DNA of 64,000 nucleotides from Chiloscyllium plagiosum (taxonomy: Eukaryota): NCBI RefSeq assembly GCF_004010195.1, contig NC_057718.1:7391563-7455562 (forward strand), read 5' to 3'. Each line of letters opens with the position of its first letter. Position 1 is the first letter of the stretch. This document shows, one piece after another, positions 1-63,953 of the stretch. A program made the translations under genes and the position numbers. The notes beneath the pieces were generated by a model. That model ran no database searches. It saw nothing but the letters and a program-made list of their open reading frames with translations, and was not told the DNA's origin.

Positions 1-152
1 CCAGGAACCCCATCCAGGAGAAAGATATAAATAGAAAGCAGGAGACAACAGCTTCGCTTCACTTGGAGGTCTCCACTGATGATGTTACCTAGCCAGTGAT
101 GAAACGTCTGGATATCAAACCTACAGCTCAGCGAGCAAACCTACACCCTAAA
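1..152 (+). mobile_element. Penelope-like element 3' terminus (family A)
   Basis: Contains a minimal hammerhead motif followed by ...gctcagcgagcaaacctacaccctaaac, a tail typical of PLE ends. Confidence 0.65.
72..112 (+). ncRNA. Minimal type I hammerhead ribozyme motif
   Basis: tcca-CTGATGA-t-GTTAC(ctagcca)GTGAT-GAAACGTC-tgga: intact core, 4-bp stem I, 5-bp stem II, palindromic ACGT in place of stem III. Confidence 0.8.
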
Positions 153-155
153 CTG

Positions 156-660
156 TGAACAGTTTTGAGCAATCCCCAAGCCCCCACATATCCAAGGAAA
201 GATGTACAGGCATTGAGGATAGTCCAGAGATGGTTCACCAAGTTGATTCCAGGTATAGAGGGACTATTTTATGAGGAGAGGTTGAGTTTGTCAGGCCTGC
301 ACCCTTTGGACTTTAGAAAGTTTAGAAGCACAAGAATGACAGGGTAGATGCTGAGAGATTGTTTCTTCTTGTGGGAGAGTCGGGAACCAGTAAATATAAT
401 CTCAGAAAAAGGCATTGCCCATTTAAACAGAGATGAGGACACCATTTTTTCTTCTAAAAGATTAGTGAATCTGTGGAACTCTTTCACAGAGGTTGGCTCA
501 TTAAATATATTCTAGGCTGAGATGGACAGATTTTTAATTGGTTAGGGAAGGAAGGGTTATCGGGAAAAGACAGGAAAGTGCAGTTGACGGTTATCAGATC
601 AGCCCTGATCTTGCTGAATGATGGAGCTGACTCATTATGCTATGTCCACTCCCATGTTTC
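156..660 (+). mobile_element. Decayed CR1 LINE 3' fragment
   Basis: RT C-terminal remnant (RKDVQAL...FTKLIPGIEGLFYEERL) and CR1-type 3' UTR. Confidence 0.8.
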
Positions 661-790
661 ATATTGATATTGTCTTTTGTGCAACAGAATGCTTTGGCCT
701 TCAACACATTGTTCAATGTATTGCCAAAGACGTTTCAAGCGCTTGATGGAATGCGTGGAAGATAGCTATACACAATAGCAAATAATCAAG

Positions 791-1061
791 ATTTGGAGAT
801 GCCGGTGTTGGACTGGGGTGTACAAAGCTAAAAATCACACAACACCAGGTTGTAGTCCAACAGGTTTAATTGGAAGCACTAGCTTTTGGAGCGCTGCTCC
901 TTCATCGGGTGGTTATGGAGAACACAATTGTAAGACACAGAATTTATTGCAACAGTGCTGTAACGTTTACTATAAATTCTGTGTCTTACAGTTGTGGACT
1001 CTATAACCACCTGATGAAGGAGCAGCACTCTGAAAGCTAGTGCTCCCAGTTAAACCTATTG
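791..1061. mobile_element. PLE-end palindrome (family B) with two opposed hammerheads
   Basis: Inverted arms at about 865-912 and 1004-1055; 13-bp TSD GCAAATAATCAAG at 778-790 and 1062-1074. Confidence 0.85.
1008..1042 (+). ncRNA. Minimal hammerhead ribozyme motif (AGCT loop variant)
   Basis: cac-CTGATGA-a-GGAG(cagca)CTCT-GAAAGCTA-gtg. Confidence 0.7.
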
Positions 1062-1074
1062 GCAAATAATCAAG

Positions 1075-2222
1075 GTGGTCAATGAAATGATGGCCTTTAT
1101 ATCTACAAGACTGGGGTGTAAGGAAGCAGAAGTTATGTTGCGGCTATAAAATCTCTGGTTAGATCCCACTGGGAGTACAGGAAGCAGATGTGGGCACCAC
1201 ACGGTTGAATGGATATATTGGCCATGGAGGGAGTACAATGCAGGTTTACAAGAATGATACCTGGACTACAGGGGTTAAATTACAAAGAGAGATTATACTA
1301 ATTAGACCAGTTTTCTTAAGAATTTAAATGGTTAAGGAGTGATCTGGTCAAAGTCTTCAAGATATGAATAGAAAAAACAGGTTAGATAAAGAGAAACTGT
1401 TTCATCTAGTCGGGGATTTTAGAACTAGGGGGCATAGTCTGAGAATTAGAACTAGACCATTTTGGGAGAGATGTTAGGAAGCACTTCAACAAACAAAGAG
1501 TGGCAGACTTTTCCACAAATGGCAGTTGGGCATATTCTTAATCTGAGAGGAGAATGATTTAAAAAAGACATGAGGGGCAATTCTTTTGCACAGAGTTATT
1601 TGTGGGTGGAATGAACTTCCTGAGGAAATGATGGATGTGGGTACAGTTACAACATTTAAAAGACATTGAGATAAATACATGAATAAGAAATATATGGAGG
1701 GATGTGTGCCAAGCATTGGCAGGTGGCACTAGTTTAGTTTGGGATAATGGGTGGCATAGACTGGCGGACCAAAGGGTGAAGTTATGCTGGAAAAGCACAG
1801 CAGGTCAGGCAGCATCCGAGGAGCAGGAAAATCAACATTCCGGGCAAAAGCCCGTCATCAAGAAGGGCAGATTCCTGATGAAGGGCTTTTGCCCAAAACG
1901 TCAATTTTCCTGCTCCTCGGATGCTGCCTGACTTGCTGTGCTTTTCCAGCACCACTCTAATCTTGACTCTAATCTCCAGCATTTGCACTGCGCACTTTCG
2001 CCTGGTGGACCAAAGGGTCTGTTTCCGTGCTGTATGATTCTGTGACTTGAGGCAAGATCAGTTGCTAGTTTTAAATCTGAGGTAGATAGTTTTTTTTAAG
2101 CAAAGGTGTAAAGTATATGGGCCGAAGGCCGGTATATGGTGATAGATCAGACATGATCTTATTGAATGGCACAACAGGCTCGAGGGGGCTGAATGGCCTA
2201 TTCCTATTCCTGTATTCCTATC
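1075..2222 (+). mobile_element. Nested CR1 LINE 3' fragments
   Basis: An old CR1 RT remnant is interrupted at about 1530-2045 by a second CR1 tail, which is itself interrupted by a PLE palindrome. Confidence 0.75.
1778..2001. mobile_element. PLE-end palindrome (family C)
   Basis: Inverted arms around 1865-1872; TSD CTGG(C/T)GGACCAAAGGGT at 1761-1777 and 2002-2018. Confidence 0.85.
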
Positions 2223-2720
2223 TCAAAGGTTCATTCCAGCCTGTGGAGATTATGGAATCCTACTGGCAAGGAACAGAAGGTACCAAGCTTTCAGATGATT
2301 CATACATTCCTTAGGTTTAATTTCCTGGAGAGCTCCTGGATTTATCTTGATAAGTACACAAATCTTTTATTTTTTCATAAATATCTGTGTGCATTATTCA
2401 GTCAAAGGAATTTTTATTATTAAGGATGAGAACTTAATATTTTCCAGAGTACATTTTAGCATTTTATGATAAATAAAGACTAACTTGCCAATGATCCTCC
2501 AGCATTCACCAGTAGGAGTTTGCAAATTGAAGTGTGTTCCCTTCAACATTGAGAAACAATGAGTAAAATACACTGCGACTTGGTTGAAGCATTCCTGGCC
2601 TGTTCTGGGGTTTGTTGTACAGAAATAGATTATTGTCAATCCCAAAATCTTGCTGAGATACACAGTCAGTATGACAAGGTTGATTCACCATAGCAACCTG
2701 GATCAAATTACTCTACACAG

Positions 2721-4023
2721 AAAATGGGGGAGACACTAAATGAATATTTAGCATCAGTATTTACTGTGGAAAAGGATATGGAAGGTATAGGCTGTAGGGA
2801 AATAGATGGTGACATCTTGCAAAATGTCCAGATTACAGAGGAGGAAGTGCTGGATGTCTTGAAACGGTTGAAGGTGGATAAATCCCCAGGACCTGATCAG
2901 GTGTACCCGAGAACTCTATGGGAAGCTAGAGAAGTGATTGCTGGGCCTCTTGCTGAAATATTTGTATCATCGATAGTCACAGGTGAGGTGCCGGAAGATT
3001 GGAGGTTGGCAAACGTGGTGCCACTGTTTAAGAAGGGTGGTAAGGACTATAGACCGGTGAGCCTGACCTCGGTGGTGGGCAAATTGTTGGAGGGAATCCT
3101 GAGGGACAGGATGTACATGTATTTGNNNNNNNNNNNNNNNNNNNNNNNNNNNNNNNNNNNNNNNNNNNNNNNNNNNNNNNNNNNNNNNNNNNNNNNNNNN
3201 NNNNNNNNNNNNNNNNNNNNNNNNNNNNNNNNNNNNNNNNNNNNNNNNNNNNNNNNNNNNNNNNNNNNNNNNNNNNNNNNNNNNNNNNNNNNNNNNNNNN
3301 NNNNNNNNNNNNNNNNNNNNNNNNNNNNNNNNNNNNNNNNNNNNNNNNNNNNNNNNNNNNNNNNNNNNNNNNNNNNNNNNNNNNNNNNNNNNNNNNNNNN
3401 NNNNNNNNNNNNNNNNNNNNNNNNNNNNNNNNNNNNNNNNNNNNNNNNNNNNNNNNNNNNNNNNNNNNNNNNNNNNNNNNNNNNNNNNNNNNNNNNNNNN
3501 NNNNNNNNNNNNNNNNNNNNNNNNNNNNNNNNNNNNNNNNNNNNNNNNNNNNNNNNNNNNNNNNNNNNNNNNNNNNNNNNNNNNNNNNNNNNNNNNNNNN
3601 NNNNNNNNNNNNNNNNNNNNNNNNNNNNNNNNNNNNNNNNNNNNNNNNNNNNNNNNNNNNNNNNNNNNNNNNNNNNNNNNNNNNNNNNNNNNNNNNNNNN
3701 NNNNNNNNGAGTCCAGAACTAGAGGGCATAGGTTTAGGGTGAGAGGGGAAAGATATAAAAGAGACCTAAGGGGCAACCTTTTTCACGCAGAGGGTGGTAC
3801 GTGTATGGAATGAGCTGCCAGAGGATGTGGTGGAGGCTGGTACAATTGCAACATTTAAGAGGCAGTTGAATTGGAATATGAATAGGAAGGGTTTGGAGGG
3901 ATATGGGCCGGGTGCTGGCAGGTGGGAATAGATTGGGTTGGGATATCTGGTCGGCATGGACGGGTTGGACCGAAGGGTCTGTTTCCATGCTGTACATCTC
4001 CACATCTCTATGACTCTATGACT
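2721..4023 (+). mobile_element. Young CR1 (HER1-like) LINE, 5'-truncated, spans gap
   Basis: ORF2 motifs KSPGPD, W..ANVVPLFKKG, YRPVSLTSVVGK; 3' tail ctctatgactctatga. Confidence 0.93.
3126..3708. other. Assembly gap
   Basis: N run. Confidence 1.
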
Positions 4024-4162
4024 TGATTCCAGCAGTCAATTTTTAAAGCCTTTTGATTACCCTTCCCTCCTCCATATATTGTAGCTCCAGAATTGTGAAT
4101 ATGCAATGAGATATTTCTGTGGCAGCTCAGCTGAGATGGTAGCAAATGTATTTTTATATTTA

Positions 4163-5972
4163 CAATCCTTCAAAGATCAGCAAGGTGGCCTTTGTGTGGA
4201 AACGCAGGAGTTGCGGGAGATACTAAACGAGTATTTTGCATCTGTGTTTACTCTGGAAAAGGACACGGAAGACATAGAACGTAAGGAAATAGATGGTGAC
4301 ATCTTGAAAAATATCCATATTACAGAGGAGGAAGTGTTGGATGTCTTGAAACACATAAAAGTGGATAAATCCCCAGGACCTGGTCAGGTGTACCCTAGAA
4401 CTCTGTGGAAAGTTAGGGAAGTGATTGCTGGACCCCTTGCTGAGATATTTGTATCATCGATAGCCACAGGTGAGGTGCCAGAAGACTGGAAGTTGGCTAA
4501 CGTGGTGCCACTGTTTAAGAAGGGTGGTATGGACAAGCCAGGGAACTATCGACCAGTGAGGCTGACATCAGTGGTGGGCAAGTTGTTGGAGGGAATCATG
4601 AGGGACAAAATGTATTTGGAAAAGCAAGGACCGATTAAGGATAGTAAAAATGGGCGTGGGAAATCATGTCTCACAAACTTGATTGAGTTTTTTGAAGAAG
4701 TAACACAGAGGATTGATGAGGGCAGAGCAGTTGACATGATCTATATGGACTTCAGTAAGGCGTTCGACAAGGTTCCCCATGGAAGACTGGTTCGACAAGG
4801 TTCCCCATGGTTAGATCTCATGGAATAAAGAGAGAACTAGCCATTTGGATACAGAACTGGCTCAAAAGTAGAAGATAGAGGGTGGTGATGGAAGGCTGTT
4901 TTTCAGGATGGAGGCCTGTGACCAGTGGAGTGCCACAAGGATCAGTGCTGGGTCCTCTACTTTTATATAAATGATTTGGATGTGCGCATAAGAGGTATAG
5001 TAAGTAAGTTTGCAGATGACACCAAAATTGGAGGTGTAGTGGACAACGAAGAAGGTTACCTCAGATTATAACGGGATCTAGACCAGATGGGCCAATGGGC
5101 TCAGAAGTAGCAGATGGAGTTTAATTTAGATAAGTGCGAGGTGCTGCATTTTGGGAAAGCAAATCTTAGCAGAACTTATACACTTAATGATAAGGTCCTA
5201 GGGAGTGTTGCTGAACAAAGAGACCTTGGAGTGCAGGTTCATGGCTCCTTGAAAGTGGAGTCACAGGTAGATAGGATAGTGAAGAAGGCGTTTGGTATGC
5301 TTTCCTTTATTGGTCAGAGTATTGAGTACAGGAGTTGGGAGGTCATGTTGCGGCTGTACAGGACNNNNNNNNNNNNNNNNNNNNNNNNNNNNNNNNNNNN
5401 NNNNNNNNNNNNNNNNNNNNNNNNNNNNNNNNNNNNNNNNNNNNNNNNNNNNNNNNNNNNNNNNNNNNNNNNNNNNNNNNNNNNNNNNNNNNNNNNNNNN
5501 NNNNNNNNNNNNNNNNNNNNNNNNNNNNNNNNNNNNNNNNNNNNNNNNNNNNNNNNNNNNNNNNNNNNNNNNNNNNNNNNNNNNNNNNNNNNNNNNNNNN
5601 NNNNNNNNNNNNNNNNNNNNNNNNNNNNNNNNNNNNNNNNNNNNNNNNNNNNNNNNNNNNNNNNNNNNNNNNNAGTCCAGAACTACAAGGCATAGGTTTA
5701 GTGTGAGAGGGGGAAGATGTAAAAGAGACCTAAGGGGCAATGTTTTCACGCTGAGGGTGATACATGTATGAAATGGGCTGCCAGAGGAAGTGGTGGAGGT
5801 TTGTACAAATGCAACATTTAAAAGGCACCTGGATGGGTATATAAATAGGAAGGGCTTGGGGGATATGAGCCAGGTACTGGCAGGTGGGATTAGATTGGGT
5901 CTGGTTGGCATGGACAAGTTGGACTGAAGGGACTGTTTCCGTGCTGTACGGCTCTACGACTATGACTCTATA
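4163..5972 (+). mobile_element. CR1 (HER1-like) LINE, 5'-truncated, with stops and frameshifts
   Basis: RT motifs [26 protein letters not shown] and FNLDKCEVLHFG; CR1 tail. Confidence 0.95.
5365..5673. other. Assembly gap
   Basis: N run. Confidence 1.
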
Positions 5973-5982
5973 ACTCCAACCC

Positions 5983-6215
5983 GGGACGGTGCGGTGGCTT
6001 ATTGGGTAGCACTGCTGCCTCACAGTGCCAGGGACCCAGGATCGATTCCAGCCTCATGCGACTGTCTGTGTGGAGTTTCCCCATTTTTCCCGTGTCTCCG
6101 GGTGCTCTGGTTTCCTCCCACAGTCTAAAGCTGTGCAGGTTAGGTGATTTGGCCATGCTAAATGCCCATTGTGTTAGTACATTAGTAAGAGGGAAATGGG
6201 TCTGAATTGTAGTGG
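5983..6215 (+). mobile_element. HE1-type tRNA-derived SINE
   Basis: A/B-box head (ggtggct...gtagcactgctgcctcacag...gatcgattcc) and body ctgtctgtgtggagtt. Confidence 0.85.
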
Positions 6216-6416
6216 GTATGGAAGCCCCCAAGTTTAAGTTCCCACTACATGCTATCATGGCCAAGGAAGGCGTATTGTAATGTTTTGATATGAGCTGGCA
6301 ATATCAATGGCAGGCAGTAAGACTCGGATAGATTCCTGGTCATCACATAATGGTAAGAATCTAACAACTAGGAACAGGAGTAGGCCATTCAGCCCTTCGA
6401 GCCTGCTCTACCATTC

Positions 6417-6818
6417 AATGAGCTATAAGGAGAGGCTGGACAAATTAGGGTTGGTTTCTCTGGGGCAGAAAAAGCTGAGGGGAGACTTATTGGAAGTTTA
6501 CAAAGTTACAAGAGGCATACATAGGGTTGACAGTCAGAATCTTTCTCCCAGAGTTAAAGGTAAAAGGGGGATAGTTCAAAGAAGGTGTGAGGGGCAAGTT
6601 ATTTCCACAGAGAGTGGTAGGTACCTGGAACTGCCAAGAGTTATGGTGGAGGTGGATATGATAGGGGTGTTTAAGGAGCTTTTAGATAAGCACATGAATA
6701 TGTAAGGAATGGTAGGATATGGCCCATGGGCAGGCAGAAGGGACTAGTTTAATTTCATATCAAATTCGACACCACATCGTGGGCCAAATGGCCTGTTCCT
6801 GTGCTGTTCTATGTTCCA
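6417..6818 (+). mobile_element. CR1 LINE 3' fragment
   Basis: SYKERLDKLGL...LRGDLLEVYK; CR1 tail. Confidence 0.85.
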
Positions 6819-7093
6819 TATCATTCCTACTCACGTTTTGTTTTAAATCTGTGAGCCCTTAGCCTAAAACTACGACCTCTTATTCCAGATTGCTCCATGA
6901 GGAAACATCCCTCTCTGCTAATTTGTCAATTCCCTTCAGCATCTTGTATACCTCAATTAGATCCCCTATCATCTTCGTAAACTCCTCATAAGACAAACCT
7001 TTTGTTTCTGGAACCAATATTGTGAAACATTCCAGAACAAATTTCTAAACTTGTGGAAATAGCATGGATCTTGCAGCCTTTCCTGAGGTTCAA

Positions 7094-7577
7094 AGTAGAC
7101 AGGCCAGAGGCTGGAAAAATAGAGCAAACCAGGCAGCATCAGGAGGTGGTGAAGTCAATGTTTCGGGTGTAACCCTTCTTCAGGACTGGGGATGGGTGTA
7201 GGGGGGAGCTGCAGATAAAGGGGTTTGGGGGGCAGGGTGGTGAGGTGGGGATAGGTGAAGACAGGTAGGGGGTACGACCTGGTTAGTCAATGGGAGGAAT
7301 GAATCCAGTTGGTGGCTGGGAGCAGTGGAGGGGAGGGGGAGGGGCTGGGAAGGGAGTCAGGGGATGGGAAGGGAGGTTATTTGAAATTGGAGAACCCAAT
7401 GTTGATTCCCCTGGGCTGTCGGCTGCCCAGGCAGAAGATGAGGTGTTGTTCCTCCGATTTGCGGTGTGGTTCATTGTGGCAATGGAGGAGGCCAAGAATG
7501 GTCATGTCGGAAAGGGAGTGGGAAGGGGAATTAAAATGGCGGTGACTGGGAGGTCCGGTTGGCCCCTGCGGGCTCAG
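7094..7577 (-). mobile_element. PLE 3' fragment (GIY-YIG C-terminus plus terminus) with hammerhead at 7153-7187 (family D)
   Basis: Minus strand reads ...EEQHLIFCLGSRQPRGINIGFSNFK*; agtc-CTGAAGA-a-GGGT(tac)ACCC-GAAACATT-gact; flanks CTGAG(G/A)TTCA. Confidence 0.8.
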
Positions 7578-8092
7578 CTGAGATTCAGGCTTAATTCTAG
7601 ATTTACTTCAAGATTTCTTACAGTCATTATACTTCCGTAATATAAGATTTTTAAAAGACATTTAGATAAATACATGAATAAGAAATATTTGGAGGGATAT
7701 GGACCAAGTGCAGGCAGATGGGACTAGTTTAGTGTAGGATTCTGTTTAGCATGTATTGGTTGGACCAATGGGTCTCTATGGCCTTATGACTCAATAGGTG
7801 TCTCGAATGCAATTACGTTCCTCCACAATAAGGGGATCAAAACTATATGCTGTACTCTAGAACTGGTCTCACCAATGTCTTGGTACAAAAAAGGCTTCCC
7901 TCCTTTTATACTCCATTCCCTTTCAATAAATACTCAACACTTCCAACTGCAACATGCTTGTAAAAGTATGTGTTACCACAGCAACTTGGCCTTCTTGAGG
8001 GGCAGATTGTCTCAGTTGGCTGGGCAGCTTCCAAGGAACAGATGGGTACCAACAAGACACGGTCGTATGTCTGAGTGAGGTGATAAAGCAGC

Positions 8093-8222
8093 TTCCTGAA
8101 GAAAGGCCTGTGCCCGAAACGTCGAATCTCCTGTTCCCTGGATGCTGCCTGACCTGCTGTGCTGTTCCAGCAATAAAGTTTCAACTTTGATCTCCAGCAT
8201 CTGCAGACCTCACTTTCTCCCC
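8093..8222 (+). mobile_element. Solo PLE end (family C) starting at the hammerhead (8093-8126)
   Basis: ttc-CTGAAGA...GAAACGTC-gaa; 11-bp TSD GATAAAGCAGC. Confidence 0.85.
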
Positions 8223-11388: not shown

Positions 11389-12539
11389 ACAACCAAGTAA
11401 CTCATCATCTGCTGTGTGCTGAATATAAGTAATTATTCAAAAGCATAATGGTTGGGTGTTGTTAAACTTCAGTGCATGCTGCACATGTTATTAACATTTG
11501 TGAATCTGATGTATGCGCTAATCCATACAACATTGTAGTCAACCTTGAAAAGAGAATTTTTCTCCTCCAGTGCATCTGTCCCGCTGCTCCATGAGGGCCA
11601 ATGGTCCCTCTCCCATTTTGATGCTGCACAAACATCTGACGTTCTTGTATGGCAGTGACCTCTGCATACGGAGGTCGATGTGTTGGTCCATCAATCAATA
11701 GAAATGGAACCTATCAGCCACACAGTTTACAGGGAACATGCAGGTGAGGTGTAACATAGCAGAGGTCTTTAAGTTTCTACATTTCAATGTCTCAAAATGC
11801 ACCCAATTTAAACAGCCTCACAGTCAGGAGTCTGAAAAATCGCAGACAGACTGAGATCAGACATTTCTACTTCTCTCAGAGGTCTGTGTGTCTTTGAAGT
11901 TCATGTCTGAAAAGCTGCTGGAAATGGAGTCCTTGAATTTTTTTTAAAGGCAGAAGTAGATAAATTCTCGTTAAGCAGGGTCTGGAAGGTTATTGGGGTC
12001 GAGAAGATTTGAGGCTACAATGAAATCAGCCATCATTTTATTGAATGGTGGAGCAGGCTCGAAGGGTTGAATGGCCTCCTTCTGACTCATAGATTCCAAT
12101 TAAAACGCTTTTAAGAGATGTGTGCTTTTAAACTACACTGTAATTGTTCTGCATAATCCTCAAGGATGAGGCATGTACATGACAAATGTTTTGAAAGCAT
12201 ACATTTAATGCATTGTACAGATTGTTAGGTTCTGTTAAGAATCTGTAAAGATCCAAAAGCTTGCCAGAACTCATCAGCAATGGTGCTGCATTTTTTTTGT
12301 GAGTTGGAAACTTTTATCGTCTTATTAAAAGAAATATATTACTCCATTGAAGAGAGTTCAGAGAAGGTTCACGAGGATGATCCCTGGTATGGAGGCATTG
12401 TCTTATGACTCTTCTCACTGGAGTTAAGAAGAATGAGAGGTGACCTCATTGAAACATATCAGAATCTAAAGGAGCTTGACAGGGTCAACGCTGAGAGGAT
12501 GTTTCCCTTTTTGAGAGAGTCCAGGTCTAGAGTAGAGGA

Positions 12540-12759
12540 GCTGAAAATGTGTTGCTGGAAAAGCGCAGCAGGTCAGGCAGCATCCAAGGAACAGGAGAAT
12601 CGACGTTTCGGGCATTAGCCCTTCTTCAGGATTCCTGAAGAAGGACTTTTGCCCGAAACGTCGGTTCTCCTGTTCCTTGGATGCTGCCTGACCTGCTGCG
12701 CTTTTCCAGCAACACATTTTCAGCCCTGATCTCCAGCATCTGCAGCCCTCACTTTCTCT
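12540..12759. mobile_element. PLE-end palindrome (family C) with back-to-back hammerheads, inside a CR1 fragment
   Basis: About 90-bp arms centred near 12632; TSD TAGAGTAGAGGA at 12528-12539 and 12760-12771. Confidence 0.9.
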
Positions 12760-23020: not shown

Positions 23021-23047
23021 TTTTTAAAAATCAGAGGTCGCGTACGG

Positions 23048-49878: not shown

Positions 49879-50929
49879 TAGGTCAGATTGTAAGATAGCC
49901 CTAGGTATGAAATTAATAGCATTTGAAATTCTCACAATACCAATGTGTTAAATATATATATTTTTTCTTTATGAGGTGCCTGTGCAACTGGCTGGGTCAA
50001 CTGACATTGCTCATTTCTAGTCATATTTGACAAGATGGTGGTGAGCTGCCTTCTTGCAGTCCATGCGCTGTAGGTAGACCCACAATGCCGTGAGGGAGAG
50101 AATTCCAGGTTCGACCCAATGACCGTCAAGGAACGGCGATATATTTCCAGGTCAGAATGGTAAGTGGCTTGGAAGGGAACTTGTAGAGGGTAGTCTTCCC
50201 ATGTGTCTGCTGCCCTTATCCTTCTAGATGGAAATGGTCACGAATTTGGAAGGTGATTTTTAATATCTCTCAATCAATATCTGGTCATTATCACATTGTT
50301 ATTTGTGGAACCTTTGTTGGATTACCTTGAACATTTCCTGCAAATCAACACTGACCAACCACACTTCATTTTATTTTTTGTAAACCATTTTAATAAGCAG
50401 TACCTTTAAAGACAATATATGTTAGGGTGTATAATTCTGAAGGAGTTACATGAGCAGAGGAATCTGGGTGTCCATGTGTATATATCATTGAAGGTGGCAA
50501 GATAGGCAGAGGAAGCAGTAAGTAAAGCATACAGTACTCTCAGTTTCATTAATAGCAGCACAGAGTCCAAGAGCAGGGAGATGAAATTGGACATGTAAGA
50601 GACACTTGTTAGATTTTAGCTGGAATATTATGTAATATTGCGGGCAACACATTATGGAGAGTGTGCAGAAGCTACTTACAAGGATATTTCCAGGAAAGAG
50701 AACTTCAGATATCAGGGTCAGTTGAAGAACCTTGGATTGCTCTTTTTGTAAAGAAGAAAGCTGAGAAGAGATTTGATGGAGGTTTTCATCATCATGAACA
50801 AGCTGGATAGTGTAGATAGGGAGAAACTGTTCGTAATCTCGGGGCACAGAATTCAAACGACTTGCAAAAGGAGCAAATATGATGTGAGAAACATTTTTTT
50901 CTGTCAATGAGTAATGGGTAAGGAATGCA

Positions 50930-51570
50930 GTAGGGTTAAAGTTAGTCACGGTTTGGGTTACGGCTAGAGTTAGGGTGAGGGTTATGGTTAGGATTAGGGC
51001 CAGGGTTAGGGTTAGGGTGAGGATTAGAGCTAGGACAAGGGTTAGGGTGAGAGTTATGGCCAGGGTTAGGGTTAGGGCTCGAGCAAATGTAAAGATTAAG
51101 GTTAAGGTCAAGGTTAGGGTTAGGGCTAGGGCAAGGTTAGGATTAGAGTTACGGCCAGGGTTGGGGTTAGGGCTAGAGCATGGATTAGAATTAGGGTTAA
51201 GGTCAAGGTTAGTGTTAGGGCTAAGGCAAAGGCTAGGTTTAAGGTCAGGGGTTAGGGATAAGGTTAGGGCTAGGATTGAGGTTAGAGTTTGGGTTAAGGT
51301 TGGGGTTCGGTTTAGGGTTTGGATCAGGATTTGGGCTAAGGTTAGGTTCAGTGTTAGAGTTACAGGTCATGTTAGGATTAGGGTTAGGGTTAGGGCTGCT
51401 ATAGGGGTTAGGGTTAGGGTTGTGTTTAGGGTTAGGACCAGGGTTAGGGTTAGGGTTAGGGTTAGAGTTAGGTTTGGATTAGGGTTAGGGTTAGGTTTCA
51501 CACCAGAGTTAGGGTTTGGGTTAGGGCTCAGATTGAGTTTAGAGTTAAGACTGGAGTTGGGGTTAGGGTT
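50930..51570 (+). repeat. Degenerate interstitial telomere-like (TTAGGG)n array
   Basis: About 640 bp of GGGTTA and variants, with pure runs (for example 51444-51465); lies inside a CR1 fragment (about 50410-51755). Confidence 0.92.
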
Positions 51571-51757
51571 CGGCACTGCCTGGGAAATGTGGTGAGTGCA
51601 AGTTCAATTAAAGTGTTCACCAGGACATTGAATGGATAGTTTGAATAGAAATAACATACACCGGTTGGGGTGAAGGTAGGAGATAATGTGACTTTAGTTA
51701 ATGATGCTCATTTAAAGAACCGATGTACACATGATGGGCTGAATGGCCTCTATGTAT

Positions 51758-52079
51758 AGATTAGATTAGATTACTTACAGTGTGGAAACAGGCCCTTCGG
51801 CCCAACAAGTCCACACCGACCCGCCGAAGCACACCCACCCAGACCCATTCCCCTACATTTACCCCTTCACCTAACACTATGGGCAAATTAGCATGGCCAA
51901 TTCACCTAACCTGCACATTTTTTGAACTTTGGGAGGAAACCGGAGCACCCGGAGGAAACCCACACAGACACGGGAAGAATGTGTAAACTCCACACAGAGA
52001 GTTGCCTGAGGCGGGAATTGAACCCGGGTCTCTGGCGCTGTGAGGCAGCAGTGCTAACCACTGTGCCGCTGTGCCGCCC
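51758..52079 (-). mobile_element. Young HE1-type SINE
   Basis: Complete, with (agatt)n tail. Confidence 0.92.
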
Positions 52080-54210: not shown

Positions 54211-54211
54211 C

Positions 54212-54690
54212 AAGGAGGTGAGTCAGACATGGCTGAAGACTCTGTCTATCACAGTGAGGGGGTTTCTCAATCGAGGATCAGATTGATATTGGAGGTAGTC
54301 TGGTGGATGAAGGCATCATCAGAACAGATGCAAAGGAGAGGGAGACACTGGGAAACTGGAATGGAACAAACATAGGAACTGTCGGAGAAATTCAGCAGGT
54401 CTGGCAGCATCTGTGGAGAGGGAGAGAGAGACACACTTAATGTTTGTAGTCTGACAGGACTCTTCTTCAGAACTAGAATGGTATCTTTGCAGGAAGCAGG
54501 GAGTGAGGAGGCGCAGTTAAGGAAACTGTGAAAATGGCTTGGCTACTCATGGACATTGGTAGCCTATCCTCAGAAAGGGAAACAGTGATGCCAAGGAAGG
54601 GAAGCCAATAGTCAGAGCTTGACCAGGTGAAGGTGAGAGAACGATGGTATTTAGAAGCAAAACTGATTAATTTTTCCAATTCTAGATGAA
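54212..54690 (-). mobile_element. Old PLE RT fragment interrupted by a PLE end
   Basis: LISFASKYHRSLTFTWSSSDYWLPFL is homologous to LINFTNTFHPDLKFTWTISDTSLPFL of the PLE at 62508. Confidence 0.78.
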
Positions 54691-54908
54691 AGTGTCATGC
54701 AGACCTCCTTTCTGGTGTTCTCCAGAGATATAAACACCACAGTAATGTTCCTTTTCTTCACGAACCTCTCCAGATGGATATTTGATCACCAGATCGGTAC
54801 GACATGTCAAAACTCCAAAATATGATAGCAAAGCTTGAATTATTTACCTTGTTAACTTACTGCTCAGTGAAGAGCTCAGTCACAGCAACGGCATCGGTGG
54901 CAGTGAGT

Positions 54909-55524
54909 ATGCCCAGCACTATGGGCTCTAGTGGGCCCAGTAGTATGGACTTGAGTAGACCCAGCAGCACAGACTCAAGTAGGCTCAGCAGCATGGACTC
55001 GAGTGGACCCAGCAGCAAATACTTGAGTGAGCCCGGCAGTATAGACTCAAGTAGACCCAGCAGTGTAGATTCAAGTAGGCCCAGCTGTATGGACCAGAGT
55101 AGGCCCAGCAGCAAATACTTGTGTAGGCCCAGCAGTTTAGTCTCAAGTAGGACCAGCAACATGGACCCTAGTGGGCCCAGCAGCACGTACTCAAGTGGGC
55201 TCAGCAGTAGACACTCAAATAGGCCCAGCAGTATAGACTCAAGTAGGTCCAGCAGCATGGACTCGAGTGGGCACAGCAGCAAATACTTGAGTGGGCCCAG
55301 CAGTATGGACCAGAGAAGGCTCAGCAGTATGGACTCAAGTAGGCCCAACAGCACATACTCAAGTGGGCCCAACCGCACATACTCAAGTGGGCCCAGCAGT
55401 AGAGAGTCAAAAAGGCCCAGCAGTAGACTCAAGTAGGCCCAGCAGCATGGACCCAAGTAGGCCTAGCAGCATGGACTCGAGTTGGCCAAGCAGCATGGAC
55501 TCGAGTAGGCCCAGCAGCATGGAT
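54909..55524. repeat. 24-bp minisatellite, about 25 units
   Basis: Consensus approximately GACTCAAGTAGGCCCAGCAGCATG. Confidence 0.93.
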
Positions 55525-56931
55525 ACGTGGCGGTGGCATCAGAAGTGGGTTTGGGCCCAGTATAACACCCTGTGGCATCATCAGTGGCTGCAGAAGGCAA
55601 GGTGGGCCTGAAGCACACTCTTGGCAGTGGCAGAGTCGAGTTTGGGCCATTTCAAAACTCAGCAGCATCAGTGGTGTCTGCATTGGTGAGGTCCAGTGAG
55701 GACTCAGTGGGGGGGGGGGGAGGTGTCAGTGGAGATGATATGGCACTGACGGGTGACACCTTTCATTCCAGTGACAGTGACATCGCAAAGGGGACTCCTG
55801 GCTGGTCACCAGGTCCATGGCCTAGTGATGGAGCACTTAACAAGAAAGCTCCAAGAGTTGTTGACCAGGTAAAGGGTGCGGAGTGTATCCCCTCCTTTAT
55901 AACATCCCTCTTCATTACAAGTGACACTTGTATTTCATTCCAGCTTTGGTCTACTACACCTGAATGAAATGGTGTTAAGCAGATCAGTCATAAAAATAAG
56001 TTAATTTCAAAGTTTTCTTGAATGGAAGAGAGAGGGATTTAAATTCTTATTACTTTCCAAAAATATTAAAACAACACCAAACACCTGCAAGCAAACCCAG
56101 GCAATAAGCTTACAAAGAAGTGGGGTGCCTATTACAGACAGGAAGTTAAAAGCAATTGTAGTTTGCATTTCTAAAGAGTCCCTAAGGGTTTAGATTATAA
56201 ATTAGTATCCTAACTGTATAACAGTTATTTTGCTTCTTCATCAATGATAAATATAGGTTTAATCTACAACCTTCTTGTGGAGGCACCCGTAGATAGCAGA
56301 GTTCATAATATAATTGAATTTCACATTCAATTTGAGGGAGAGATGTTTGGGTCCAAGACTAGTATTTTAAAATTAAATAAGGGCAATTATGGAGGCATGA
56401 ATACAAAGCTGGCTAATGTGAATTAACAATTTGGTTAAAGGATAAGTTAATAGAGATACCTGTGGGAGACATTGAAGGGGATACTTCAGACTACAAAGAA
56501 TAGAAACATTCAAATGGATAATAATTATTCCTAGATGAAGTTACAGCCTTTGGTTAGCTAGAAATATTTCAAACTTAAAGCAACAGCATACAATTGTGCA
56601 AAGGTAGATGGCCGAAGATTGATTAGTATACAAAGAAAAAGACTGAAAATTAATGAGGGAAAAATTAGAGTATGTGAGAAAGTTAGTCAGAAATATAAGA
56701 ATAGATAATAAGAGTTTCTATGCTTACTGAAAAGAAAAGGCAAACTGGACATTGACCCTATGGAAAGTGAGACTTCAGAACTGATCGTGCAAAATAAAAG
56801 GAGGCAAATAAAAGGAAGCATATTCTTCATTTTTGATAATGGAGGATGCAAGTAACATCCCAAAAGTAGTGATTCATTCAGAAATGGAAGGAAGGGAGAA
56901 ACAGAAGAAAAATAGATTCAGAGAAGTGGCC

Positions 56932-57682
56932 AAGCAGAGGCTGATAGCCAAGTTTGGTACCCAGAGGGATGGCTTCAGTTGGGACCTTGGGTTCATGTCA
57001 CACTACAGGTGACCCCACTACACTATACACTCTCTCTCTCTCTCTCTCACAGTCACACACAAACACACATACACGCACACACCGACAGACCCGACAGAGA
57101 TCATACACAAGATCTCTCTCATACACTCACACATATACACCCACACATGCACCCTCTCGCAGACTTATACTCCTTTACACTCACACTCACACGTATACAT
57201 AGACACTCATACCCCTCCCCCCCCCTCCCCCACACACACACACACACATATGTGTATGTTTGTGGGGTGAATTTGTATTTGCAGAATTATATTTTATTTT
57301 GCTCAAAAACTGCATGAATCCATGTAAGAAAATGTAAATCCCTTTTTTAGAAATAGAATCAGTTTGAACATTGGGGCACAGACAGCCTCACACAGGGCAC
57401 CTCACACCTTCAATGCATTATCTAAGCCAACATGGCACCTATTGTTAAAGTTCACTTGAGAATGTTACTTTAAAACAAATTTCTGGGATTTACATATGAA
57501 AGAACTGAAACCACCATGGTCATTCTAAAAGATGAGAGACTTAACAAACAATCCAGGTCTTTTTCAATACATTGCATCACGCTGTAAACTTTTGCTATAA
57601 ATTCTGCATCTTACAATCTTATGCTCCACAACCACCTGATGAAGGAGCAGCGCCCCGAAAGCTAGTGCCTCCAAATAAACTG
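56932..57682 (+). mobile_element. PLE 3' portion (family B): endonuclease C-terminus, CA-rich 3' region, hammerhead at 57633-57667
   Basis: QRLIAKFGTQRDGFSWDLGFMSHYR*; cac-CTGATGA-aggagcagcgcccc-GAAAGCTA-gtg, the same end as the 791 and 60781 palindromes. Confidence 0.75.
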
Positions 57683-59066: not shown

Positions 59067-60780
59067 GTTAGTATGCAGGTACAGCAAGTAATTGGGAAAT
59101 TTAATGGCATGTTACTGTTTAATTTGAGGGGTATTGGGTTCAAAAGAAAAGAGGTAGTGCTTCAGTTGTACTAGATGCTGGTGAGATCACATCTGGAGTG
59201 CTGTGTTTAGTGTTGATCACTTGATTTAAGATGTGAGTACGCTGGAAGCAGTTCAGGGAAGGTTTATCAGACTGATATCAAGGATCGGAGAGTTATCAGA
59301 GCAGGTGAAGATGGACAGGCTCTGTATCTGCTTGTATCCACTGGATTTTGGAAGAGTATGAGGTGATTTGCTTAAAACATAATATCCAGAGACCCCTCAA
59401 AAAGGAGGATGTGGAAAGGGTCTCTGGTGGGAGATATTAGAGTTGGGAGTCACTGCTTAAAAATAAAACTGAGATGAGGAAGACTGTTTTCTCACAGAGT
59501 CCTCGAAAGGGAAGCAGAGTTTTTGACTATTTTTAGAGCAGAGGTGAATAGATTCTTGGTTAGCAAGGGCTGAAAGGTCATCAGGGCTAGGTGGAAATGT
59601 GATGTAATCTGATCAGCTAAGAGCTTATTGAATGACATAGTCATCTTGAGGGAGCTTACTATTTTCAATGTTTGAATGCTTGCTGTGGGAGCTTACTGTG
59701 CACAAATTATTTGCTCATTTCCTGAAATTGCAACAAAAAAAACTTCACCTCAAAAACTACTATGAAGCACTTTGAGTATCGTCAAGGTTACAAAAGGTAA
59801 CAGAAATCCTTTCCTTTTAAACGATCAAGTGCATAACTGGTCACTATCCACTTCTTGGAAAGATTCATAATTGCTTTAACAACAGAAGATTTTTGAAGCA
59901 AAGAATTATTTTTTGCACGATTCACAATTGCGACCTTAAATATTTCCAGCACTGTTTGCTTGTAGCTGTTGAAGTATTTCTTAGCCCTATCTTGCAAAGT
60001 GGCTGTCACCTCTCTCAGACATTGTCTGTATTTCCCTAGCTGTGCATATTTCTCCAACTGTTACTGTCTCACTGTCTTTGAACCTCTCCCTTTTCCTGTA
60101 ACCATGCGAGTTCCTTACTGTGTGTTTGTTGGTCTGTACCAGTCTCTCTTGAGAATATCCATTTCAACACCTGTTGTGAGCTGTCATATTTCACAGTTTC
60201 ACTCACTATCTGCTTTTGCAGTCTCATATTTCTCCTCCCAAGTGTCTCTGCCGCCTCCTCAAACACACACACATAACACACACAGTCTAAATTTGTAGAG
60301 CTCCATTCAGTTTAATTTGCTGACTTCACTGACCCCAAGTGAATACTCTAATATTTTTTATGTACAGTCCCATGATCAGTAAGCTCCTCATTTAATATAA
60401 CCTTCTCATAAATGATCCCACGTCATATGCCATTGGTGCAAATGTTTGGGTGGATGTGCGTTGGTGAAAAGCGAAAAACATTCACATGCTGCATTTACTT
60501 TTCCCTCTTGGTCCAGCCTTTCTTCCCTCATCTAAATTCTCAAGTTACATCTCTGACAAAACAATCAACTGGTCCCGACAGAAAATATGATGTTTAGTCT
60601 CAAAATGCTTTCTGCTGCTGGTTCTATTCTAGCGGTCACATCCGACGTCAGTTCCACTGACAGCATTTTTTATCCAGAAGGTTCGGCTGAAAATAATTGG
60701 GAGGATGAGGTGCAGAGGGGAATGTTGTAATGTTCCATAGAGAAAGGACAGAAATAGCAAGGCTGCCTATCTGCCTCCTG

Positions 60781-61001
60781 ATTTGGAGATGCCAGTGTTG
60801 GACTGGGGTGTACAAAGCTAAAAATCACACAACACCAGGTTATAGTCCAACAGGTTTAATTGGAAGCACACTAGCTTTCGGAGCGACGCTCCTTCATCAA
60901 TTGTGTCCTCCACAATCACCTGATGAAGGAGCACCGAAAGCTAGTGTGCTTCCAATTAAACCTGCTGGACTATAACCTGGTGTTGTGTGATTTTTAGCTT
61001 T
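60781..61001. mobile_element. PLE-end palindrome (family B)
   Basis: About 85-bp arms; TSD ATC(T/A)GCCTCCTG at 60769-60780 and 61002-61013. Confidence 0.9.
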
Positions 61002-62339
61002 ATCAGCCTCCTGGCTTTTCCAACTCGATCCAGCCACATCTCCAAAACTTGCAATTTTTCACCCACCTCATATGCCTCCATCTCTACTCTCTTCCAATTC
61101 AGACTTCTGGGATGGTTCCTATTTTGGTCAAATCACCTAAACTCTGGGATTCCCTCCCAATAAAACTTTCCATCTCTTTACTTCTCTACTAGACACTTCT
61201 TAAGACCTGCCACTTTGACAATGCTTTTCTAACCATGTCAGATTTGGCTTCACAACTTTTCAGCACAGTGCGTTGTTTTACTATTTTAAAGCAGTTATAT
61301 AACACAAGTTCTTGTTGTTTCCTCTTGTCCCAGCTGTTAGCACTCTTGCCTCAGAACAAGATGGATTTGAATTCCAAAGTAGGAACTGCAGGTGAAAGAG
61401 AGGAACAGATCTTTGAGCCTTATCCATTCTTCAGTTAGATCATGGCCTCTCTGCATCTGAACGTCTTCAGCGCATTTTGGTTCCACACTATTGCCAGATA
61501 TCGATCAGGCTCAAGACTAGACAATCTAAGCCCCACTCCTTTAGATTCAATGATTGTGCCATCACTGAATCCCCTACTATCACCATTCACGGGGTTACTA
61601 CTGACCAGGAACTGCACTGGTCCAGCCAGACAGATACTGTACCTTCAAGGACAGGACAGAAGTCAGGAATCCTGCAGTGAGTAACTTACCTCCTGACACC
61701 CCAAAGCTTGTTCACCATCTACAACATTTTCCCCTCATGGGGGCATTTATGACCAGAAGGCACGGTCTCAGAATAAAGGGCTGCCAATTTAAGACTGAGA
61801 TGAGGAGGAATTTCTTCTGTCAGAGGGTTGAGAGACTTTGGAACTCTTTGCCGCAGAGAGCTGTGGGGACAGAGCCCTTGTGTATATTTAAGGCTGAGGT
61901 AGATTGATTCTTGATCTGTCGGGGAATGCAAGATAATTGGGAAAAGGCAGGAAAGTGGACGTGAGGGATGTCAGAACTGATCCGCCTCTTTGGGAAGCTT
62001 TCCCTTAATCCTTAGCCCTTCCCCATCAGAGGAAGTCATTGATCTGTCCTATCGAATCTTTTGCTGATCTTAAAAACCTGAGTTCACGGAGATTGAGTGC
62101 TTGTTGATAGCAGTGGAGACATTCCAAACAGGAAGTTACATTTGTGCTGCCTCAGATGTTCAATTCCGCCCAACAGAGAGACAACTATCCATGTCTCTGC
62201 TGACAGACTGTAATATGTATTAATTTCCCACTTGTATATGAATGAAGCTGTGGAGTTTCTCCTCTGTTTCTGCAACCACTTATATTTGCACTATTGTATA
62301 TAACACAGGACTTTGTCAGTACATCTCGCACTAGGATAA

Positions 62340-63953
62340 ACTATTCTCTCAGCATGCTCCTGCCCCACTGAACTCATCTCTACCTACCTCGACACCCTCC
62401 TATCCCCCCTAGTCCAGGAACTCCCCACATACATTCGAGACACCACCCACACCCTCCACCTTCTCCAAGACTTCCGTTTCCCCGGCCCCCAATGCCTCAT
62501 CTTCACCATGGATATCCAATCCCTCTCCACCTCTATCCGCCATGACCAGGGCCTCCAAGCCCTCCGTTTTATCCTCTCCCGACGTTCCCAACAGTACCCT
62601 TCCACAAACACTCTCGTTTGTTTGGCCAAACTGGTCCTCACCCTTAACAATTTCTCCTTCGAATCCTCCCACTTCCTCCAGACCAAAGGGGTAGCCATGG
62701 GCACATGTATGGGCCCCAGCTATGCCTGTCTCTTTGTTGGCTACGTAGAGCAGTTGATCTTCCGTAATTACACCGGCGTCACTCCCCACCTCTTCCTCCG
62801 CTACATTGATGACTGCATTGGTGCCACGTTGTGCTCCCGCGAGGAGGTTGAGCAACTCATCAACTTCACCAACACATTCCACCCTGACCTTAAATTTACC
62901 TGGACCATCTCTGACACCTCCCTCCCCTTCCTGGACCTTTCCATCTCCATTAATGACGACCGACTTGACACTGACATTTCCTACAAACCCACCGACTCCC
63001 ACAGCTACCTGGATTACACCTCTTCCCACCCTACCTCTTGCAAAAATGCCATCCCGTATCCCCAATTCCTCCGCCTCCGCCGTATCAACTCCCAGGAGGA
63101 GCGGTTCCACCATAAAACACACCAGATGGCCTCCTTCTTTACAGACCGCAATTTCCCTTCCCACGTGGTTAAAGATGCCCCCCAACGCATCTCNNNNNNN
63201 NNNNNNNNNNNNNNNNNNNNNNNNNNNNNNNNNNNNNNNNNNNNNNNNNNNNNNNNNNNNNNNNNNNNNNNNNNNNNNNNNNNNNNNNNNNNNNNNNNNN
63301 NNNNNNNNNNNNNNNNNNNNNNNNNNNNNNNNNNNNNNNNNNNNNNNNNNNNNNNNNNNNNNNNNNNNNNNNNNNNNNNNNNNNNNNNNNNNNNNNNNNN
63401 NNNNNNNNNNNNNNNNNNNNNNNNNNNNNNNNNNNNNNNNNNNNNNNNNNNNNNNNNNNNNNNNNNNNNNNNNNNNNNNNNNNNNNNNNNNNNNNNNNNN
63501 NNNNNNNNNNNNNNNNNNNNNNNNNNNNNNNNNNNNNNNNNNNNNNNNNNNNNNNNNNNNNNNNNNNNNNNNNNNNNNNNNNNNNNNNNNNNNNNNNNNN
63601 NNNNNNNNNNNNNNNNNNNNNNNNNNNNNNNNNNNNNNNNNNNNNNNNNNNNNNNNNNNNNNNNNNNNNNNNNNNNNNNNNNNNNNNNNNNNNNNNNNNN
63701 NNNNNNNNNNNNNNNNNNNNNNNNNNNNNNNNNNNNNNNNNNNNNNNNNNNNNNNNNNNNNNNNNNNNNNNNNNNCCCACCCTCCTCTAGCTTATCTCTC
63801 CACGCTTCAGACTCTCTGCCTTTATTCCTGATGAAGGGCTTTTCCCGAAACGTCGATTTTACTGCTCCTTAGATGCTGCCTGAACTGCTGTGCTCTTGCA
63901 GCACCACTAATCCAAATTCAGGTTTCCAGCATCTGCAGTCATTGTTTTTACCT
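62340..63953 (+). mobile_element. Penelope-like retroelement: RT ORF, gap, and 3' terminus with hammerhead at 63825-63857
   Basis: PLE RT motifs MDIQSL, QTKGVAMG...PSYACLF, RYIDD, LPFLDL, YKPTDSHSYL, IPY.QFLRLRRI; CTGATGA-a-GGG(ctttt)CCC-GAAACGTC. Confidence 0.93.
63194..63775. other. Assembly gap
   Basis: N run. Confidence 1.

Follow-up and report, generated by a model that had tools for sequence, protein, structure and literature searches.

Hammerhead-bearing stubs of Penelope-like elements in Chiloscyllium plagiosum have a 5' boundary that most likely marks the RNA start

Minimal type I hammerhead ribozymes have been described in the terminal repeats (pLTRs) of metazoan Penelope-like retrotransposons (PLEs). 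In the sections of PMC4209133 drawn on here, several families are found per genome, mostly as single motifs from truncated PLEs, together with dual motifs on opposite strands, and the core is combined with an extra nucleotide, a G10.1–C11.1 pair and a palindromic remnant of helix III; a U3–A8 core variant also occurs. About 4,000 motifs were counted in the coelacanth and about 9,000 in Xenopus. The results, the discussion and part of the methods of that paper do not give the positions of 5' ends relative to the ribozyme. The canonical insertion of an endonuclease-positive (EN+) PLE, in the relevant parts of PMC3846280 and PMC8557442, comprises a pLTR and an inverted 5' pLTR within a target-site duplication (TSD), with a tail of 30–40 bp on one end only and occasional capture of host DNA between the pLTRs. 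A TATA box and an initiator were already noted there in a rotifer pLTR, and junction palindromes were explained by self-priming on an antisense template (PMC3846280). The promoter of Drosophila Penelope is internal and TATA-less (PMC2377424). In vitro, the anole Poseidon element PAc nicks and extends both strands; its hammerhead mutants insert normally, and the main substrate is uncleaved RNA (main text of PMC11167929). Animal non-LTR retrozymes are short, non-coding, hammerhead-bearing, PLE-derived units with monomers spread over the chromosomes (excerpts of PMC7229834 and bioRxiv 10.64898/2026.07.22.740005, the latter including one chondrichthyan).

We compared these systems with a 64,000-nt stretch of the Chiloscyllium plagiosum genome (NC_057718.1, positions 7,391,563 to 7,455,562; the window). 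The traits listed above for the metazoan hammerheads and the canonical EN+ insertion recur here, as do the non-coding, dispersed short units of the retrozymes; the ribozymes and the inverted-repeat-plus-tail architecture were already known. A preliminary description of the window had named ten cores and eleven degenerate copies, and all 21 were present when read in context, although on the minus strand its numbers gave the opposite end of the motif. With the first C of CUGANGA as reference, the ten cores lie at 76, 1011, 8096, 12635, 47461, 57636, 60920 and 63828 on the plus strand and at 7183 and 12629 on the minus strand. The window sites display the catalytic core CUGANGA...GAAA...UH with stems I and II; at 60920, stem II carries a deletion. 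A strict descriptor (core, stem II of at least 3 bp, stem I of at least 2 bp) gave six matches in the window, compared to a mean of 0.03 (maximum 1) in 30 dinucleotide shuffles.

The stems differ between families and yet stay paired, as had been claimed. Across nine family consensuses, 29 of 36 stem I pairs and 39 of 45 stem II pairs were kept, with shuffle means of 18.6 and 28.3 (p ≈ 2e-4, a count in which related subfamilies are not independent of one another). The extra nucleotide between CUGANGA and stem II, also described before, was built into the consensus pattern but optional in the strict search, where all 25 descriptor matches used it. Seven of ten groups keep a palindromic helix III (ACGU or AGCU). 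The CATT at 7183, listed before among the cores, is not palindromic and appears to reflect CpG decay, the corresponding letters in another A3 copy being CGTT. The closing pair G10.1–C11.1 is found in eight of the ten groups, family C having G–U and the lone family F copy being decayed, and the family E core is the U3–A8 variant. PLE hammerheads of this kind are known for weak self-cleavage, as dimers or aided by protein; for the dimer, an intermolecular helix III of 4 bp is predicted here at about -3 to -4.5 kcal/mol. A search of Rfam returned no hammerhead family, only sub-threshold miRNA and snoRNA matches, several of them on palindromes.

As had been proposed, these are minimal type I hammerheads of PLE termini, here the pLTRs of EN+ elements: reverse transcriptase (RT) and endonuclease sequence lies directly upstream of the hammerhead in the window (62343–63828) and in the copies L029, L045, L047 and L050. 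The PLE-type RT matched Pfam RVT_1 with E = 9e-05, below the curated cut-off, clustered with RVT_1/HTH_animal in the Atlas at 0.97, gave no match to PDB sequences, and is linked to GIY-YIG-type C-termini. All three RT copies fetched were 5'-truncated; neither a 5' pLTR–ORF junction nor a pLTR–ORF–pLTR partial tandem was found among them. The PAc ORF begins inside the hammerhead (main text of PMC11167929), whereas the family A pLTR has no conserved frame evident by eye. A CX2-5CxxC motif in the linker before GIY-YIG, given as a mark of the Neptune clade in the cited part of PMC8557442, is present in L045 (family A) and L050 (family B), suggesting that both families are Neptune-type, although Nematis has the motif too. 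It was not seen in the family C relatives L033 and L034, so that family C probably belongs with Penelope/Poseidon; family D appears to do so by the likeness of its endonuclease end.

In all, 33 arms were found in the window (A 18, F 8, B 6, C 1), in agreement with the claim of at least four families. They include arms absent from the preliminary description: the pairs at 28281–28473 and 38689–38884, the minus arm 1780–1864, and minus-strand arms at 47193, 29719 and 54470. The set is dense in the window, as had been said, but this density is ordinary for the genome (0.53 per kb versus 0.37 per kb; 73 arms in 195.5 kb from 20 spaced stretches, range 1–11 per 10 kb). The 19 strict motifs in those 195.5 kb extrapolate roughly to ≈350,000 genome-wide, compared to the thousands given in the text of PMC4209133, where the descriptor differs.

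Some copies in the window extend into element sequence above the ribozyme. At 1–153 (+), cut by the window start, is a 3' end of family C, with TATAAA at 26–31, the core at 76, a predicted cut after 108 and the short, tail-less end; its probable Poseidon-type assignment rests on L033/L034. The probable Neptune-type ends are an A3 copy at 7064–7560 (-), with an endonuclease C-terminus remnant, 3' UTR and core 7183, and a family B copy at 56915–57680 (+), with an endonuclease C-terminus, a CA-rich 3' UTR, core 57636 and TATAAA 40 nt above it. An A2 element at 62340–63953 (+) has a 5'-truncated RT frame (62343–63191), an assembly gap (63194–63775), 3' UTR, core 63828 and tail. A family F end at 54365–54682 (-; core 54470) adjoins decayed PLE RT fragments, and an F2 end at 37410–37513 (+), with CATAAAT 35 nt above the core, may include body sequence.

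The commonest product lacks the body and has a sharp 5' limit, unlike the canonical insertion as set out in the cited parts of PMC3846280 and PMC8557442. Stubs of 90 or 125 nt make up about three quarters of family A copies; they start 0–6 nt upstream of the core, contain the complete ribozyme, carry TSDs and end at one of two positions separated by 35 nt. Exact genome matches numbered 92,770 for a 22-mer at +63 versus 19,204 for a 22-mer at -43, and the upstream motif lay 100–105 nt away in 16 of the first 100 downstream matches. Solo stubs in the window are an A1b copy at 8093–8221 (+; tail, start -3, 11-bp TSD) and older family A copies at 31101–31225 (+; tail, start +1), 34620–34704 (+; no tail, start +1), 47653–47781 (-; tail, start -3), 48581–48710 (-; tail, start -4, 12-bp TSD) and 49425–49552 (-; tail). 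An old family B stub at 39046–39148 (+) starts at +16, and degenerate stubs of F lie at 19860–19954 (+) and 38212–38315 (+) and of F2 at 29614–29719 (-).

Other arms are joined head-to-head. Family A pairs in the window are an older one at 1780–2003 (starts -3 and -4, 17-bp TSD, tail solely on the plus arm); a young A1 pair at 12538–12758 (cores 12629- and 12635+, 12-bp TSD, tail solely on the plus arm), which folds into a single long hairpin; and A1 pairs at 28281–28473 (14-bp TSD), with arms beginning within the ribozyme at +14 and +11, and at 38689–38884 (starts +6 and +11, 15-bp TSD). The family B pair at 787–1062 (cores 907- and 1011+, 13-bp TSD, TATAAA at 971–976) has arms that both extend about 50–60 nt above the core, and the pair at 60780–61004 (cores 60899- and 60920+, 13-bp TSD) has its tail solely on the minus arm. 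A single composite insertion at 47069–47543, flanked on both sides by the TSD, consists of a long minus arm, chimeric with the neighbour at 47653–47947, a short plus arm (core 47461) and two captured local host pieces of 165 and 97 nt. All 32 family A pairs combined one long and one short arm, that is, one tail (14/14 in the unselected set), and 29 of them had TSDs of 11–18 bp. Rare variants were common to both arms in 15/40 cases, versus 35/760 between pairs. Each two-armed insertion thus uses each start site once. This rule would seem to fit two-nick priming better than the self-priming proposed in the cited part of PMC3846280. It also resembles PAc, for which the main text of PMC11167929 describes two internal start sites defining the tail, extension of both strands, use of uncleaved RNA and no reads ending at the cut site; run-off stubs are not described in that main text.

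The predicted cut lies at +28 from the C of CUGA, on the 3' side of the core, and an end made by cleavage would therefore have lost the core. Instead, inserts begin ≈32 nt upstream of the cut with the whole core retained. Among 54 unselected family A arms, 32 start at -6 to +1 from CUGA, five lie beyond -40, and none starts at +25 to +31. The ends are thus far from random, as had been expected, but they do not fall at the cleavage site, and the proposal that ribozyme action sets the boundary is not supported. The clustering is real, yet it is not set by cleavage, and the insert ends show that the copied RNA was uncleaved at the hammerhead. Raw reads from an RNA run of a related organism had a depth of 104 at -15 to -6 and of 333, 472, 539 and 579 in the following 10-nt bins, with no step at the cut site. 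Loose read ends fell at -4, +89 and +125; some of the reads at -4 come from the sister subfamily A2, which has a different body at that point. No pile-up of read starts was present in this poly(A) single-cell library, which is ill-suited to 5' ends.

Long copies have a TATA box, or a sequence like one, ≈30 nt upstream of the boundary. Measured from the core, TATAAA stands at -40 (B), -50 (C), -53 (D), -36 (one E copy) and -33 (one F copy). Family A has no canonical TATA box; A1, A2 and A3 have (T)TTATCT at -34 to -36, together with a YYANWYY-like word, its A at -4. Three family B solos with duplications begin at -8, -9 and -4, and one inverted family C arm ends near -18 to -21, which indicates that the 5' limit moves with the TATA box and not with stem I. 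In family A, the inferred start (-4) coincides with the outer edge of stem I, so that data from this family do not by themselves distinguish a structural stop from the start of a transcript. A cap-derived extra G was not evident, a G preceding 8 of 25 solo ends. The internal promoter of Drosophila Penelope counts against a TATA-driven start. Family C has the clearest TATA/initiator, yet few stubs: 0/40 matches had a close inverted partner versus 16/40 for A1, and seven of eight head-to-head gaps below 1.5 kb span 318–884 nt. The short-stub pattern is largely absent in this family.

The insert boundary most likely marks the RNA start, rather than a ribozyme-defined mobile unit. The 3' UTR of the preceding copy would supply a TATA or TATA-like box, and transcription would begin ≈30 nt downstream of it, at a CA/TA step that resembles an initiator and lies a few bases upstream of the ribozyme. 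The element protein would nick both target strands, and reverse transcription would be primed internally at two sites 35 nt apart, priming at both nicks giving head-to-head pairs. On the front pLTR of an uncleaved transcript, the cDNA would run off the RNA 5' end after 90–130 nt, and on the back pLTR it would continue into the body; long arms do extend by hundreds of bases (12 head-to-head gaps of 53–2,834 nt). Retroviral strong-stop DNA is an analogue of such run-off cDNA, which would be joined to the target or to a second cDNA, often minus a few bases. The stubs, which lack the TATA box, would mostly be dead by-products, and the ribozyme would mark the boundary only through sitting at the transcript front, with cleavage not needed. 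We consider it probable that reverse transcription starts internally at either site on uncleaved RNA and continues until it runs out of template at the 5' end. For the Neptune-type families, we lean towards a transcript from the first stem I base whose dominant product is run-off cDNA from the front pLTR of uncleaved RNA, copied once or twice.

A structural or protein-made stop could place the ends similarly: the template would continue upstream, and the RT or junction repair would halt at the outer stem I edge; a folded or protein-bound ribozyme might, for example, block the enzyme. The modal end in A, E and F (-2 to -6) does coincide with this edge, many family B arms end at 0 to +3, and the anole hammerhead is protein-assisted (main text of PMC11167929). 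However, the enzyme would already have passed the whole ribozyme on stopping, and A1 stem I is scarcely predicted to form (pair probabilities <0.01). Some family B ends (-8 to -14) lie past the 3-bp stem I, and three of seven family B pair gaps (45–47 nt) are longer than the 38 nt that two stem-edge stops would leave, though fillers could add to these lengths. Families C and D share the fold, yet their copies are mostly long. We regard such a stop as unlikely. Self-cleavage, with or without circularization, as the source of the copied 120–130-nt RNA is very improbable, even though the families share a conserved core, extra nucleotide and palindromic helix III, and tandem hammerhead repeats yielding circles are known in animals (excerpts of PMC7229834 and bioRxiv 10.64898/2026.07.22.740005). 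Retrozymes occur in tandem, as head-to-tail units that are processed by cleavage; the units end at the cleavage site and have linear and circular monomer RNAs. Here, DNA ends do not map to that site, and every arm in the window stands alone or in a head-to-head pair, the only head-to-tail cases seen being two partial ones outside it (L020 and L047); a circle would be copied past its junction into tandem repeats. The end histogram contradicts self-cleavage as the definer of a mobile unit.

The preliminary description had also suggested a small non-autonomous ribozyme-SINE. In a version of this idea that drops the cleavage step, an internal promoter would transcribe the stub from its own first bases. 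Because both priming sites are internal, any stub RNA would be a full template for the PLE protein. Stubs are in three- to four-fold excess over body-bearing copies and have precise ends and TSDs, the Drosophila promoter is internal, pLTRs on their own suffice to mobilise other sequence in trans (cited part of PMC3846280), and A1b was seen only as stubs (5/5 arms, a small sample). Against this, the stubs are wholly PLE sequence, the same as the ends of RT/endonuclease-coding copies, and A1 stub and long-copy pLTRs read alike in the copies seen. The TATA-like box falls outside the stub (TATA boxes in B, E and F), and many stubs lack part of the initiator-like word, so that a second round would erode the unit. 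Palindromic copies are predicted to fold as one hairpin of -181 kcal/mol hiding both ribozymes, and no shared flanks were noticed among unrelated stubs, local duplications aside. The unit remains unproven; we think it quite unlikely, and equally doubtful in its bolder form, in which some stubs would now propagate themselves.

What is new here is the numbers, with about 93,000 exact motif matches for one subfamily; such copy numbers make the insertion mode of PLEs and the role of the hammerhead statistically testable. Should transcripts start at the 5' limit, the stubs would be explained without a new class of element. If the run-off reading of the inserts is true, hundreds of thousands of stubs would be fossils that map where PLE transcription started, and would also record the two-nick priming step.

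The hammerhead motifs listed in the preliminary description were located by a loose scan, and each was then read in context. A strict descriptor matched 6 sites in the window, compared with a mean of 0.03 over 30 shuffles. In a comparison sample of 195.5 kb, drawn at even spacing as 20 stretches from the five largest contigs of the 3.56 Gb assembly, it matched 19 sites. By homology search, 33 arms (hammerhead-bearing ends of Penelope-like elements, PLEs) were found in the window, or 0.53 per kb, compared with 73 in the spaced stretches, or 0.37 per kb (range 1–11 per 10 kb). The motifs are therefore numerous, as had been described, but their density is ordinary for this genome, which would hold ~1.3 million arms and, under the strict descriptor, ~350,000 motifs by rough extrapolation from the 20 stretches. 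The covariation of the stems between families was confirmed across nine consensuses: pairing is seen at 29 of 36 positions in stem I and 39 of 45 in stem II, compared with 18.6 and 28.3, respectively, after exchange of strands among families (p about 2e-4, in which independence is overstated, since the subfamilies are related). An Rfam scan gave no match to any hammerhead family, and its sub-threshold miRNA matches, several of them located on palindromes, were rejected. The family E core carries U3-A8, a variant described in Schistosoma (PMC4209133), and the family was absent among the window arms seen. At other sampled loci (L030:2883(−), L031:5959(−)/5964(+), L037:6748(−), L048:354(+)/1590(−) and L050:4178(−)), the family E hammerheads have a UUGACAA core, with U3-A8 covariation, and well-paired stems.

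Arm ends were tabulated over 62.5 kb of the window, the 195.5 kb of spaced stretches and the flanks of 29 loci. Excluded before counting were L001 (the window itself), two local duplicates and 6 arms that ran into a gap or the end of a locus, at least two of them body-bearing. With the first C of CUGANGA taken as position 0, 34 of the 56 unselected family A arms (6 dropped) start at −6..+1, 12 at +2..+24 and 3 at −14..−7, with 5 beyond −40 and 2 beyond +31. None of the 56 starts at +25..+31, around the predicted cut between +27 and +28. Removal of the two local duplicates leaves 32 of 54 arms at −6..+1, where about 4 would be expected. Unrecognized bodies cannot explain this peak: half of the counted family A arms sit in head-to-head pairs, where there is no doubt about truncation, and in several solos the duplication lies only a few bases from the arm end. 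A motif at −43 gave 19,204 matches and one at +63 gave 92,770, a ratio of 0.21, or about 0.25 allowing for mismatches, with assembly gaps that may conceal some bodies; the arms that pass −43 extend widely (12 gaps of 53–2,834 nt). Family B has 5,384 upstream to 10,340 downstream matches, but this ratio mixes subfamilies and ages and was left out of the argument. In X21, a run of raw reads from a poly(A) single-cell library of another, related organism, covering both strands and uninformative on expression or cleavage, the depth was 104, 333, 472, 539 and 579 in successive 10-nt bins covering −15 to +34; it steps up at −5..+4 but not at the cut site. Some of the loose ends at −4 in these reads derive from subfamily A2. 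A second run, X22, contributed no reads, and contig depths, not being copy numbers, were set aside.

On the end histogram and the X21 depth, a boundary at the cleavage site was rejected. The boundary lies ~32 nt upstream of the position that cleavage would produce, and the copied RNA is uncleaved there; likewise, uncleaved RNA of the anole element is copied in vitro (PMC11167929). The proposal that the inserts begin near the ribozyme thus holds in the clustering of the starts, but a SINE with cleavage-defined ends does not follow from it.

At their 3' ends, the arms stop at about +82..+97 or +120..+135, and loose X21 read ends lie at +89 and +124/125. The difference between the two classes is the 30–40-bp tail described in PMC3846280 and PMC8557442; in the anole element, the tail marks two internal start sites (PMC11167929). 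All 32 family A pairs consist of one long and one short arm, as do 14/14 unselected pairs (chance about 5e-5), and 29 of the 32 have target duplications of 11–18 bp. Arm identity is 96.5% within and 94.4% between pairs (20 A1-type pairs), and rare variants are common to both arms in 15/40 cases within pairs, compared with 35/760 between pairs. This likeness fits an origin of both arms from one RNA or one source gene, with later conversion as a further possibility. Among the first 100 of the 92,770 matches to the A1 motif, 32 form 16 head-to-head pairs, with gaps of 87–153 nt in 13 and 1.7–2.2 kb in 3; the expected gap is 134 if both arms end at −4 and 70 if both end at the cut site. Editing was considered as the cause of a G at +29 in one arm only, in 7 informative pairs, and was rejected, as query selection explains it.

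A single composite insertion, with its target-site duplication, occupies 47069–47543 of the window. In the long arm, young A1 sequence gives way to that of an older neighbour at 47653–47947, including 165 nt of the host flank of that neighbour (about 96%), while 97 nt (98%) from 48479–48575 lie ahead of the short arm. This arrangement shows that, between the twin arms, the template was switched to local sequence. A 7–9-bp stem is found 3' of the ribozyme in A and C/D (sampled loci L018:1546–1613, L042:572–612 and L047:2997–3035), with its 3' strand within the tail and the short start site enclosed by it. A single compensatory pair distinguishes C from D and another occurs within A; the B consensus fold differs. 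The predicted stem is possibly a protein-binding or start signal.

In the predicted folds, monomer hammerheads are without helix III, A1 has a weak stem I, and pairing of the self-complementary remnant between two molecules would give ~−3 to −4.5 kcal/mol. Since the motifs of a pair lie on opposite strands, a pair transcript is predicted to hold one ribozyme, within a −181 kcal/mol hairpin. The head-to-head pairs are not tandem dimers of the type thought to cleave. Whole stubs (arms without a body) of A, C and E fold no better than shuffles (z −1.2 to +0.8), while B has z −3.6. Among the arrangements seen, a cleaving dimer could form in cis only in the head-to-tail partial tandems at two sampled loci, L020:2795–2855(−), 60 nt apart, and L047:2224–2450(−), 226 nt apart.

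The best-supported cause of the 5' boundary, and on balance a probable one, is run-off at the transcript start. In long copies, TATAAA is found at −40 in B, −50 in C, −53 in D and, in one copy each, at −36 in E and −33 in F; three A subfamilies whose adjacent bases differ have (T)TTATCT at −34..−36. About 30 nt below the box is an initiator-like word; its A is at −4 in F and in A1, A2 and A3, whereas C has it at about −20. The TATA-to-initiator spacing and the initiator consensus are textbook. The few informative ends track this word, at −4 in A, at −8, −9 and −4 in B solos, and near −18..−21 in one C arm; one C pair has a gap of 46. Transcription from inside the PLE terminal repeat (pLTR) is known, and a TATA box plus an initiator has been noted in a rotifer pLTR (PMC2377424 and PMC8557442, and PMC3846280, respectively). 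We infer copying of the front pLTR up to the RNA 5' end: with priming at internal sites, the mRNA's front pLTR would itself serve as a template, and its cDNA would have to stop there.

Against run-off, there was no pile-up of starts among 1,440 X21 reads (poly(A) single-cell library, both strands), and a 5' pLTR–ORF junction was not found, 3/3 copies being truncated. The −4 position in family A coincides with the edge of stem I, which might itself mark the end, and many B ends fall at 0..+3. A cap-derived extra G was sought at the junctions, and G precedes 8 of 25 solo ends. In Drosophila, the Penelope promoter is internal and has no TATA box (PMC2377424), and family C consists mostly of long copies, with a close partner in 0/40, compared with 16/40 for A1 (a count in which the locus of the query is included). 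In the main texts of the open literature searched, we found no paper mapping such stubs to the transcript start, and nothing relevant on the pattern in sharks or with twin priming.

An RT frame occupies 62343–63191 of the window, upstream of the hammerhead core at 63828, and the order at locus L029 is RT, endonuclease end, 3' UTR, ribozyme. A PDB sequence search for the PLE RT gave no match. The CX2-5CxxC linker motif, assigned to Neptune and Nematis in PMC8557442, is present in A (L045) and B (L050) and was not seen in C relatives. On this basis, we would provisionally place families A and B with Neptune, and C and D with Poseidon. The downstream sequence of A is common to E and F. At locus L051 (reverse strand), the N-terminal coding sequence of a PLE copy contains a 120-nt unit repeated ~4 times in frame, at 686–1203. 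The window also contains many decayed LINE-like RT frames on both strands (2694–5975, 16097–16564, 22064–22726 and 24960–25714), which may be CR1-type, a degenerate hexamer array resembling telomere-type repeats (50931–51573), and a tandem array of ~24-nt units (54904–55523) with a serine-rich frame on the + strand and a leucine-rich frame on the − strand. Local GC skew is strong and changes sign, reaching +0.33 and −0.41 (1–8000, 14001–24000, 48001–52000 and 62001–64000), probably as a result of the strand bias of the repeats.

Unlike retrozymes, the window arms are not arranged in tandem, and the arm ends do not map to the cut site. The system works like the EN+ PLEs with minimal hammerheads described in PMC4209133, PMC3846280, PMC8557442 and PMC11167929, and belongs with them by the features tested. 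The stub system is abundant and real, and is a member of this known EN+ PLE/minimal hammerhead kind.
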